Shown here: in pieces, positions 36,426-50,541 of the stretch
How positions within the stretch are numbered: position 1 is the first letter of the stretch
How the letters are laid out: each line of letters opens with the position of its first letter
DNA from: Escherichia phage EAWsc9
DNA: 64,000 bases
Strand: one strand, 5' to 3'
Sequence record: PQ341120.1
Made by a program: the position numbers and the translations under genes
The notes under the pieces: generated by a model
What the model was told of the DNA's origin: nothing
What the model saw: only the letters and a program-made list of their open reading frames with translations
Database searches by the model: none

Positions 36426-36686
36426 TTACGCTTTACCGCCGGAAACAATACCAAAGGTCTCAAAGTCCCATTCAATATCATCAACATCAACTTTCTTACC
36501 AGCAACCACGAATGCGATTTCGCGACGTTTTGCATAGGTGACAATTTCTTTACCATCACCACCAAAGAAAGAATAACCATTGCGCTTCATGGTGCCAAAG
36601 TCTTCAGCATCGCCAGCAAAGGCGCGAACTTTAAAAGCACCAGTAGGAGCTTTGGCTTCTGTGATAAATTCTTGATAAGTTTTCAT
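36426..36686 (-). CDS. Internal protein (IP-type, capsid-targeting N-terminus)
   Basis: Start set to internal ATG giving MKTYQEFITEAKAP...; T4 IP capsid-targeting consensus MKTYQEFIAEA; own early promoter upstream. Confidence 0.7.
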   Translation of the reverse strand: MKTYQEFITEAKAPTGAFKVRAFAGDAEDFGTMKRNGYSFFGGDGKEIVTYAKRREIAFVVAGKKVDVDDIEWDFETFGIVSGGKA

Positions 36687-46745: not shown

Positions 46746-46834
46746 ACGTTTCTCTTTAGTTGATTTATAAAAAAGCCCCAACCTTTCGGAAGGGGCTATA
46801 CCTTGTCGGGGTTCCACCTGCAAGGCAAGTGTTC

Positions 46835-47218
46835 TTATCCGCGAGCGAATGCCATTGCAGCGCGTTCGTTGGCACGGTCGGTGATGTTCAAGAATTTATC
46901 ACGAGCAATTTCGATTGGGGCGCCGACCCAGTCAGCAGCACCATTACCCGGAGACTGTTTAGGGCGAACCATATAAGTTGAAACTTTGGAACCAGCTAGT
47001 TTGGCACCTGGCGCCGCGGCATTTTTAACGTCTTTAGCTTTGATGCCAAACCCAGTTACGATACCCCAAGAAACGCCATTAACTGGTTTCTTGAACATAA
47101 CACGGTCACCAATTGAAACACCGGCTTTTTCTGGAGCCACTAAAGAAAATTTACCAGCTTCAGTCAGTACGGATTCGGTGATGGTATTGCGATTTAAAAA
47201 TTCTGCATATGTAAGCAT
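46835..47218 (-). CDS. Hypothetical late protein (possible IP-like N-terminus MLTYAEFL)
   Basis: 127 aa; perfect late promoter TATAAATA 32 nt upstream. Confidence 0.55.
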   Translation of the reverse strand: MLTYAEFLNRNTITESVLTEAGKFSLVAPEKAGVSIGDRVMFKKPVNGVSWGIVTGFGIKAKDVKNAAAPGAKLAGSKVSTYMVRPKQSPGNGAADWVGAPIEIARDKFLNITDRANERAAMAFARG

Positions 47219-47249
47219 TTTGTTTTTCCATTATTAGGGTTGTTGTTAA

Positions 47250-47257
47250 TATTTATA
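47250..47257 (-). promoter_or_regulatory. T4-type late promoter TATAAATA
   Basis: Minus strand TATAAATA upstream of 46835..47218. Confidence 0.6.
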
Positions 47258-47451
47258 TTCCATAGTACCGGATGCACCATCCGCTCGGATTTCTCATACT
47301 ACCGGACGCACCGTCCGCTCTGGAAAAACTCCGTTAAAAGGGTGCGCCGTTTCAGCTGTGGTAGTAAAGAACCAGAACACAGTAAAACTGTGGGAGGAAC
47401 TATACTTCAGGGAACTTCAGTCCGACGACTTACCGGTAGCGACCCGGTTTC

Positions 47452-47691
47452 TCATTCAATTGTAATAGCTAATTTGACTTTAACAACCTTATAATTGGAA
47501 TCAAGGTCATTGAATTCCATAAAATTTGTTGCTAATCTGCGAGTCGGGAAACTTAGATATTTATTATGCTCAGGTGGAGCAGTTAATGCAAACCATGGGA
47601 CTTGTTTATCATTTTCATCAAACTCATCAAAGCTATAAACCAGCTCGTTGTTGGTTATATCCATAACTGCATATGATTCACTAATAACCAT
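47452..47691 (-). CDS. Hypothetical acidic protein
   Basis: ORF 47452..47736 (non-ATG start codon, overlaps tRNA) trimmed to internal ATG with GAGGA upstream. Confidence 0.45.
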   Translation of the reverse strand: MVISESYAVMDITNNELVYSFDEFDENDKQVPWFALTAPPEHNKYLSFPTRRLATNFMEFNDLDSNYKVVKVKLAITIE

Positions 47692-47706: not shown

Positions 47707-47783
47707 TGGTCGGGGTGGTGGGATTCTAACCCACAACCTACGGTTTAGAAGACCGTTGCTCTATACAATTGAGCTACACCCCG
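47707..47783 (-). tRNA. tRNA-Arg (anticodon UCU)
   Basis: Hand-folded cloverleaf: acceptor 7 bp, D stem gctc/gagc, anticodon stem acggt/accgt with loop cuUCUaa, T stem gtggg/cccac, encoded CCA; unusual D-loop and T-loop (U19/A56). Confidence 0.7.
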
Positions 47784-47859
47784 GGTGGCCCCATCCGGAC
47801 TTGAACCGGAAACCTGCCAGTTATGAGCCGGATGCTCTAACCAATTGAGCTACAGGGCC
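47784..47859 (-). tRNA. tRNA with anticodon CAU (Met or lysidine-modified Ile)
   Basis: Hand-folded cloverleaf: acceptor ggccctg/tggggcc, D-loop aattggtta, anticodon loop cuCAUaa, T arm tccgg-ttcaagt-ccgga; 3' end encodes CC only; abuts tRNA-Arg. Confidence 0.7.
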
Positions 47860-50268: not shown

Positions 50269-50541
50269 CTATTTTAAATAAATTGCATATTTTTTATAAC
50301 CAGCCGTCTCATGACGGAGACCCTTGTCATTGGCAAAACGCTCAATGTTATTAATTTGGTTCTGGTCAAGTTCTGAAATGTCAAACGCGAAAAAGTTGCG
50401 TTTGTTGCCAATTGTTATATGGTCAGTTAAGTCAATGCTATACAGGTGATTGATATTGTCAATCATAGCTTTGACCGCTTTACTAATTTTTACTTCTTCA
50501 TTCAGTTGTGACTCGTTGAAAAATTCATTGAAAGTTTTCAT
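50269..50541 (-). CDS. Internal protein (IP-type)
   Basis: 90 aa; N-terminus MKTFNEFFNES. Confidence 0.65.
   Translation of the reverse strand: MKTFNEFFNESQLNEEVKISKAVKAMIDNINHLYSIDLTDHITIGNKRNFFAFDISELDQNQINNIERFANDKGLRHETAGYKKYAIYLK

Follow-up and report, generated by a model that had tools for sequence, protein, structure and literature searches.

T4-like phages serve as a reference system for gene control at the RNA level, and the region that follows their tRNA genes encodes 2 RNAs of unknown role, RNAC and RNAD, which in T4 accumulate with no known function (PMC3014915). In the T4 late genes e, soc, 49, and I-TevI, the late promoter is located inside an inhibitory structure at the start site; the helix can be formed solely by transcripts initiated further upstream, and the late transcripts lack the 5' arm of this structure (PMC3014915). 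The PeSL and PmSL elements of T4-type phages are composite cassettes of a stem-loop and a promoter (Arbiol 2010; Comeau 2014; PMC2839356, PMC4122927). The polymorphic internal-protein (IP) loci of T-even phages, according to Repoila 1994 as cited in PMC4122927, consist of a conserved N-terminal leader of about 10 to 25 amino acids and a variable cargo, and are exchanged together with a conserved upstream regulatory sequence.

We examined a locus in a 64,000-nucleotide stretch of Escherichia phage EAWsc9 (PQ341120.1), here called the window, where 2 short inverted repeats are located upstream of the late promoter sequence TATAAATA. As in the T4 genes e, soc, 49, and I-TevI, TATAAATA lies between 2 complementary arms, GUUUUUCCA (47329-47321) and UGGAAAAAC (47230-47222), the helix between them being predicted only. 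In place of the simple hairpin of the T4 genes, a conserved domain with 2 hairpins bridges a distance of about 90 nt between the arms. The helix, which we refer to as P1, appears in predictions for local folding contexts only, and conservation does not extend to the other genus that contains the element. In common with PeSL and PmSL, there is a stem-loop directly upstream of a promoter, a Shine-Dalgarno sequence and an ATG in an intergenic, hyperplastic region, at a border of gene replacement between close relatives (a cassette vs. rnaC in SP18 and P479), and the conserved regulatory block is common to genes with unrelated cargo. However, the promoter is late, in contrast to the sigma-70-like early promoter of PeSL and the middle promoter with a MotA box of PmSL, the element is confined to a single locus rather than being dispersed in multiple copies, and instead of a single G/C-rich stem it contains 2 short hairpins with an invariant GUG triloop and longer-range helices. 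A late-promoter version of these cassettes is described in neither PMC2839356 nor PMC4122927.

In comparison with the IP loci as portrayed in PMC4122927, the 127-amino acid ORF downstream of the element has a leader of the same kind, whereas the shared upstream block is an early-promoter motif in the IP loci (seen in RB3) and a hairpin element with a late promoter here, and the insertion site corresponds to the position of rnaC, unlike that of the classical IP loci. The locus is found in the same genomic neighborhood as rnaC and rnaD of T4, and a third hairpin in the region is part of rnaD, but the 2 inverted repeats have no similarity to either RNA, and only positions 47341-47456 correspond to rnaD. 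At this locus, a late gene whose product is probably injected or located inside the head can cleanly take the place of rnaC, and the occurrence of the front end, consisting of a folded RNA element, a late promoter and a leader, in genera with unrelated cargo extends the idea of mobile promoter and stem-loop cassettes to late promoters.

Gene order and the replacement of rnaC

The window represents a T4-like phage of the genus Gaprivervirus, the closest relatives of which are ECML-359 and pEC-M719-6WT.2 with about 99% identity. All genes of the locus are encoded on the minus strand, and the hairpins are therefore to be read as minus-strand, coding-sense sequence. The order on this strand is tRNA-Met (47859-47784), tRNA-Arg (47783-47707), an ORF of 79 amino acids (47452..47691), a homolog of rnaD (47341..47456), the 2 hairpins, TATAAATA, the 127-amino acid ORF (46835..47218), and a terminator region, which is the region that comes after rnaC in T4-type genomes. 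The 2 tRNA genes were identified with ARAGORN and Rfam, mark the start of the local stable-RNA unit (47707..47859), and were the only matches in the window at the Rfam gathering score. The 79-amino acid ORF (phrog_33509), located between tRNA-Arg and rnaD, has a stop codon that overlaps with the predicted 5' end of rnaD, and is absent from this position in TH40, T4, and RB3, in which rnaD directly follows tRNA-Arg.

The rnaD homolog (species II stable RNA) is 116 nt long with the 3' end ...GGCGCACC at position 47341, and is unannotated in the window. It was identified with blastn, which gave matches in more than 700 T-even records, and the gene is annotated as rnaD in RB3 and RB5. Its 5' part (approximately 47456-47400) and 3' part (approximately 47362-47341) are conserved with T4, and its center occurs as at least 3 unrelated alleles among the Gapriverviruses (the window, T4/VR20, and SP18/P479 types) with a mosaic distribution. 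The initial annotation had placed the inverted repeats just upstream of a late promoter and within the tRNA and stable-RNA region, which was found to be correct, and the rnaD homolog falls inside the interval it had outlined. It had also listed a third related hairpin at 47432-47447. This hairpin, CCGGGUCGCUACCGG (47447-47433, minus strand), with a stem of 4 to 5 bp and a loop of 7 nt, proved to be the 5' stem of rnaD, conserved in T4, T2, and RB3, and according to a covariance-model search it is unrelated to the repeats. It was also noted that an 84-amino acid ORF on the plus strand (47240-47494) spans the hairpins and rnaD, antisense to a conserved stable RNA. Its counterparts in relatives are annotated as hypothetical (WMU95760.1 in pEC-M719-6WT.2, ORF060 in YenM_P8, and one in UPEC07), and the ORF is probably spurious.

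The folded element described below, the late promoter and the 127-amino acid ORF constitute a cassette of 507 bp (46834..47340, minus strand), with its left junction after GGCGCACC and its right junction before AACACTTGCC. It was identified in the window and in 14 other phage records. In SP18 and P479, which belong to the same genus, the interval from GGCGCACC to AACACTTGCC, occupied elsewhere by the cassette, is taken up precisely by an rnaC gene of about 140 nt, and rnaC is absent from the 15 Gaprivervirus records with the cassette. In these records, rnaC is cleanly replaced by a late-gene cassette, and the hairpin element belongs to that cassette. Reading the hairpin segment as a degenerate rnaC gave a local alignment score of 15 against a mean of 14.7 for shuffled sequences, which is at chance level, and this option was rejected. 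In phage dhaeg of the genus Dhakavirus (L356), rnaC is cleanly missing and rnaD is joined straight to AACACTTGCC. Since rnaC is absent both from the 15 cassette-containing records and from dhaeg, it is naturally dispensable in several lineages. The right flank of the cassette is an intrinsic terminator hairpin with a U6 run (46769..46797, minus strand), which is common to the sequence after rnaC in T4 and P479. Directly after the U-run, ahead of a DUF7338 gene, is TATAAATC (46762-46769, minus strand), which resembles a remnant of the junction of terminator and late promoter that precedes leader genes in Mosig-, Dhaka-, Jiaoda-, and Karamvirus.

The T4-type late promoter TATAAATA (47257-47250, minus strand) is invariant in all 15 carriers of the cassette, and is located 11 nt after the second hairpin and 32 nt ahead of the ATG at position 47218. 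The octamer was observed 6 times in the window, compared with 5.4 expected occurrences, and is thus not rarer than chance; its credibility as a late promoter derives instead from its position and its conservation in relatives. A late promoter was found at the same position relative to homologous leader genes in 6 other genera.

The 127-amino acid ORF is preceded by the Shine-Dalgarno region UGGAAAAAC (47222..47230, minus strand), which is also the 3' arm of the candidate helix P1. The encoded protein starts with the leader MLTYAEFLNRNTITE/SVLTE/A (MLTYAEF..ITE/LTE), followed by an orphan cargo. The leader of the T4 internal proteins is MKTYQEFIAE, with cleavage after L/I-x-E, and by comparison with it the leader of the 127-amino acid ORF looks similar to the capsid-targeting leaders of those proteins. 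No Pfam or PHROGs family was found for the 127-amino acid protein, and a word-indexed protein search recovered near-identical copies only. An exhaustive HMMER search identified 3 relatives, 2 of which are distant and have IP-type leaders, MYTFKEF and MKSFKEF. The AlphaFold model was of low confidence (pLDDT 57.8), with residues 1 to 32 disordered and a small beta core. The product is a probable head-internal or injected protein.

The 2 hairpins and their relatives in other genera

The inverted repeats were found at 47269-47283 and 47303-47317, with a start-to-start distance of 34 nt, and the 2 positions that differ between the copies stay complementary, both as had been indicated in the initial annotation. 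Their description as perfect palindromes of 15 bp has to be corrected, since the arms are only 6 bp long and the 3-nt spacer is non-symmetric (CAC on the plus strand, GUG on the minus strand). On the minus strand, hairpin A (47317-47303; CGGACGCACCGTCCG on the plus strand) is CGGACG-GUG-CGUCCG and hairpin B (47283-47269; CGGATGCACCATCCG on the plus strand) is CGGAUG-GUG-CAUCCG. Both follow the pattern CGGAYG-GUG-CRUCCG, in which the GUG loop is invariant and closed by a G-C pair, with GAG on the 5' side. Each forms the core of a direct repeat, 26 nt in length and with a period of 34 nt. Hairpin A is followed by the tail GUAGUAU (47296..47302) and then by GAGAAAUCC, which represents the late promoter region in decayed form, and hairpin B by the tail GUACUAU (47268-47262) and by GGAA (47261-47258). 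A third difference between the repeat copies, G vs. C in the tails, renders the 2 tails complementary to each other.

The 15-mer was observed twice in the 64 kb when up to 2 mismatches were allowed, compared with 0.15 expected occurrences, and hairpins with a 6-bp stem and a GUG loop were also observed twice, compared with 0.43 expected on both strands of the 64-kb window, the 2 being adjacent. Neither the window nor 12 related loci yielded additional copies in a search with a covariance model of the hairpin. The element is confined to a single locus, with only the 2 adjacent copies in the 64-kb window and one place per record in the 27 phage records identified with blastn. A sigma-70 site was not found in a consensus scan of 47240-47340, and a MotA box at the right spacing was not seen upon inspection of the sequence near the hairpins. 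Among the promoter types considered, TATAAATA alone is credible here. The hairpins were not called as an intrinsic terminator in a scan for such structures and have no U tract; they are followed by GUAGUAUG and GUACUAUG.

A permissive blastn search with the 92-nt hairpin segment matched phages of the genus Kanagawavirus. Kosakonia phage 305 and Enterobacter phage IME523 contain 2 hairpins located 35 nt apart and just before GATAAATA, which match the hairpins in the window in the GUG loop, the closing G-C pair, and the GAG on the 5' side. The product of the downstream gene has only a leader of about 25 amino acids in common with the 127-amino acid protein (MLNFNEFITESVELVTEAG...). The upstream unit in the window, hairpin A plus GUAGUAUGAGAAAU, could be aligned to the promoter-proximal unit in Kanagawavirus, a hairpin plus GCGAAUAUGAUAAAU, with a score of 53 compared with a mean of 14 for shuffled sequences, and we therefore infer that the upstream unit in the window contains a decayed copy of the late promoter. 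The tails of the 2 Kanagawavirus units are complementary over 8 bp although their sequences are not repeated between the units, and the element in these phages sits after a strong terminator-like hairpin. A metagenome scan added another Kanagawavirus-like variant contig and a Gaprivervirus-like contig. Scans of IMG/VR with the hairpin pattern mostly returned coding repeats of the Gly/Ala type, and only VR20 and Kanagawavirus-like contigs were left after the hairpin filter.

Many genera contain, at the corresponding position behind the stable RNAs, a member of a family of genes that share the leader (...RMTK.KW). The GUG hairpins are absent there from Jiaoda-, Karam-, Mosig-, and Dhakavirus, where the late promoter directly follows an intrinsic terminator, whereas in Kagamiyamavirus, Winklervirus, and one metagenomic contig only remnants of the hairpin units were identified. 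The element is thus lineage-specific, and it is dispensable for the gene family, as the related genera have remnants or a terminator in its place. Furthermore, Kanagawa-, Kagamiyama-, and Winklervirus contain an 8-bp inverted repeat, GAATATGA...TCATATTC, which brackets the late promoter and ends 1 to 2 nt before the Shine-Dalgarno sequence (L140:3036-3075, L141:3036-3076, and L334:1540-1590), a classical layout like that of T4 gene e for blocking the translation of read-through transcripts. Between the annotated tRNA genes and the element, the Kanagawaviruses also contain an unannotated rnaC-like sequence and a tRNA-like segment (…GGTTCGAGCCC…), at L140:2500-2860 and L141:2560-2850.

Covariation and strand of the fold

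Among the 15 Gaprivervirus carriers, hairpin A occurs as the alleles ACG/CGU and GCG/CGC, and the change is always double; the allele CGGGCG/CGCCCG was found in VR20, TH40, TH41, UPEC01, MN01, and DK-13. Hairpin B has the stem CGGGUG in TH40 and TH44, an A-to-G change that yields a G.U wobble on the minus strand. Together with the Kanagawavirus units, a total of 7 stem variants were observed: CGGACG, CGGGCG, CGGAUG, CGGGUG, CAAGCG, UGGACG, and UGGAUG. In the alignment of the units, which comprises 9 unit variants with these 7 stem variants, 54 of 54 cells were paired and 5 of the 6 pairs contained double changes, whereas 15% to 56% of the cells were paired in controls with a slid partner. Covariance across related phages had been named beforehand as a check on the repeats, and the pairing of all 54 cells covers 2 genera. 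The proposal that the symmetric substitutions reflect selection for pairing is borne out by the further compensated variants in the relatives.

The 3 single-sided stem variants form G.U or U.G pairs on the minus strand and A.C mismatches on the plus strand, and the predicted stability of the wobble variants was -5.3 and -4.7 kcal/mol on the minus strand compared with -1.2 and -1.4 kcal/mol on the plus strand. This pairing pattern is characteristic of a single strand that folds in the minus-strand sense, and differs from what would be expected if a dimeric DNA-binding protein read the bases. It points to a folded RNA rather than an operator for a dimer.

RNAalifold, with 3 Gaprivervirus and 3 Kanagawavirus modules as input, predicted 2 more helices, H1 and H3, which span 45 to 65 nt. 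Helix H3 pairs the tails that follow hairpins A and B, with GUAGUAU as its 5' strand and GUACUAU as its 3' strand in the window, and GUAUUCGU/GCGAAUAU in Kanagawavirus. Helix H1 is formed by UUCC (47325-47322) and, as its 3' strand, GGAA in the window, and by UAUC/GAUA in Kanagawavirus, where GAUA is part of the promoter octamer. In the predicted architecture, H1 would close a junction that bears hairpin A and helix H3, and H3 would in turn enclose hairpin B. In the four-helix structure, 141 of 141 cells were paired and 9 of the 24 pairs contained double changes, compared with 31% to 46% paired cells in the slid controls, the covariation in H1 and H3 resting on essentially 2 lineages and the structure being derived from the same sequences. 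In TH44, a U.G pair of H3 has become C-G. The isolated core of 70 nt folds into exactly the four-helix structure with -20.8 kcal/mol. The global folding z-scores did not stand out (-1.7 and -2.0 over 96 nt, -0.35 over 261 nt), and the case for the fold is built on covariation and not on energy. Permissive Rfam searches gave nothing credible at E<=10 for the window region or at E<=1 for the Kanagawavirus region. The sequence comparisons point to a folded RNA element at 47325-47258 on the minus strand, about 70 nt in length, in which the 2 inverted repeats are the hairpins. The element is small, covarying, and outside Rfam.

It was also noted that both hairpins contain an invariant GGUGC, to which GCACC at the 3' end of rnaD (47337-47345 in the window) is complementary. 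This pairing appears in minimum free energy folds of long contexts, at the expense of hairpin B, and could reflect either a genuine interaction or an artefact of the folding.

A candidate anti-Shine-Dalgarno helix and alternative readings

Adjacent to the element, on its 5' side, is the candidate anti-Shine-Dalgarno sequence GUUUUUCCA (47321..47329, minus strand), the 5' arm of helix P1, which is a perfect 9-nt complement of UGGAAAAAC and within which UUCC (47325-47322) doubles as the 5' strand of H1. A complement of this length was reached in 8 of 5,000 shuffles (0.0016), and of 150 ORF starts examined across the window, 2 have one. The combination of P1 and the core was predicted at -27.8 kcal/mol compared with -20.8 kcal/mol for the version with H1, that is, 7 kcal/mol better. 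The probability of P1 was 0.97 in contexts of 126 to 141 nt and below 0.2 in contexts of 166 to 551 nt. In YenP8, a pairing C is changed to U and a G.U pair is kept; the 15 carriers are near-identical in this segment and P1 has no true covariation. P1 is not conserved in Kanagawavirus, in which a different helix of 8 bp, GAAUAUGA/UCAUAUUC, brackets the late promoter by the Shine-Dalgarno sequence and competes with H3.

The element is located upstream of the late start site and would therefore be present only in read-through RNA from the tRNA and rnaD unit. We infer such read-through into the late gene because the gene is co-oriented with this unit and no terminator is located in between. With TATAAATA at 47257-47250 between the arms at 47329-47321 and 47230-47222, late transcripts would lack the 5' arm. 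The element may have arisen as tandem copies of a unit of hairpin and late promoter region, of which only the downstream copy kept a good TATAAATA, and it is the 5' part of the late-gene cassette (element, late promoter, leader, and a 127-amino acid protein of the head-targeted type) that replaces rnaC downstream of rnaD. In read-through RNA, the compact element would place the adjacent anti-Shine-Dalgarno sequence GUUUUUCCA beside the Shine-Dalgarno sequence UGGAAAAAC and could additionally act as a structured barrier, so that the gene is kept untranslated and insulated until RNA polymerase initiates at the late promoter within the structure and yields an mRNA that lacks the 5' arm, in line with the logic known from the T4 genes e, soc, 49, and I-TevI.

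The best explanation at hand is thus a folded RNA element of an rnaC-replacing late cassette that acts in cis, with an anti-Shine-Dalgarno sequence that silences read-through until the late promoter fires, a model that we propose tentatively and to which we give somewhat less than an even chance of being correct. The element is probably an ordinary kind of cis-regulatory structure, and not a protein operator. Should the anti-Shine-Dalgarno model be true, the locus would be a more elaborate example of the scheme with a late promoter inside an inhibitory structure, and should it be false, the element would still be a tidy marker of cassette exchange. In both cases it is of specialist rather than broad interest, as a variant of a known regulatory architecture of T4-type phages.

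Alternatively, the element could be a stem-loop module similar to PeSL with no role in translation, which only attenuates or terminates read-through, or blocks 3' exonucleases and thereby defines the 3' end of the tRNA and rnaD precursor, the conserved sequence serving as a patch of homology for cassette exchange. The position immediately 5' of promoter, Shine-Dalgarno sequence, and ATG is that of the PeSL and PmSL stem-loops, and the element marks an indel between close relatives. In 4 other genera, an intrinsic terminator precedes the late promoter at precisely this site, whereas the window phage has no terminator between rnaD and the late gene. The element takes the place of the terminator hairpin in the relatives, which would suit a simpler role as an attenuator or insulator. 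However, with 6 bp and -5 to -9 kcal/mol the stems are short, a U tract is absent, an attenuator would be redundant in Kanagawavirus, where the element already follows a strong terminator-like hairpin, the element occurs at a single locus and is not dispersed, and a generic terminator leaves the invariant loop and flanks as well as helices H1 and H3 unexplained. We regard a function of this kind as rather unlikely.

A broader claim, that the four-helix structure with 2 GUG triloops is an undescribed functional RNA motif of T4-like phages, appears to be distinctly improbable. The motif would be either a stable small RNA in the rnaC slot or a switch that responds to a protein or ligand, in which H1 and the anti-Shine-Dalgarno pairing are mutually alternative and binding to the invariant GAG and GUG decides the read-through translation of the gene for the head-targeted protein.

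The structure of about 70 nt could itself be a small stable RNA, processed from the tRNA and rnaD precursor and replacing rnaC, with a function in trans or in protein binding. Its location directly after rnaD in the stable-RNA unit, at the place of rnaC in relatives, fits such a role, as do the compact fold of 4 helices, the covariation, the invariant single-stranded motifs, the lack of a matching Rfam family, and the accumulation of RNAC and RNAD in T4 with no known function. On the other hand, the element travels with the late promoter and the leader in both genera and not with the stable RNAs, it is located beyond the terminator-like hairpin in Kanagawavirus, it contains no tRNA-like 3' end or features of RNase P-type substrates, it has no similarity to rnaC, and it has been lost in related genera. 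A separate small RNA of this kind appears to be improbable, and the earlier suggestion that the repeats are stems of a small RNA stands in part: stems of an RNA fit the data, but homology to rnaC is lacking and the stems belong to the late-gene cassette.

There is only a slim chance that the repeats are functionless by-products of a recent tandem duplication and gene conversion. The repeats are indeed in tandem, the upstream copy has a decayed promoter, and the hairpins are degraded in Winkler- and Kagamiyamavirus, in which the gene has been kept. However, the 7 stem variants in the 2 genera are all paired, with double changes at 5 of the 6 positions and intermediates that are wobbles only, and the tails of the Kanagawavirus units are complementary over 8 bp though they are not mutual repeats.

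T4 DsbA has been reported to bind near late promoters, and the two-fold symmetry of the sites, located at approximately -19 to -33 and -53 to -67 relative to the start of late transcription, would suit DNA operators at which a dimeric protein of the phage regulates this promoter, as had also been suggested for the palindromes, but such operators are extremely unlikely, given that the half-site bases vary (the inner 4 bp of the arms, with compensation) and complementarity alone is conserved, that the GUG/CAC center is asymmetric and invariant, that the variants form wobble pairs on one strand but mismatches on the opposite strand, that 2 more long-range helices covary, and that T4 late promoters, to our knowledge and as is well established, need no upstream sites.

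Further ORFs with IP-type leaders are located on the minus strand of the window at 36686, 49616, and 50541, and encode proteins of 86, 84, and 90 amino acids with the leaders MKTYQEFITEA, MKTYQEFINEA, and MKTFNEFFNES. The GUG hairpins are absent at all 3 ORFs, and the ORF at 50541 has TATAAATA directly upstream.
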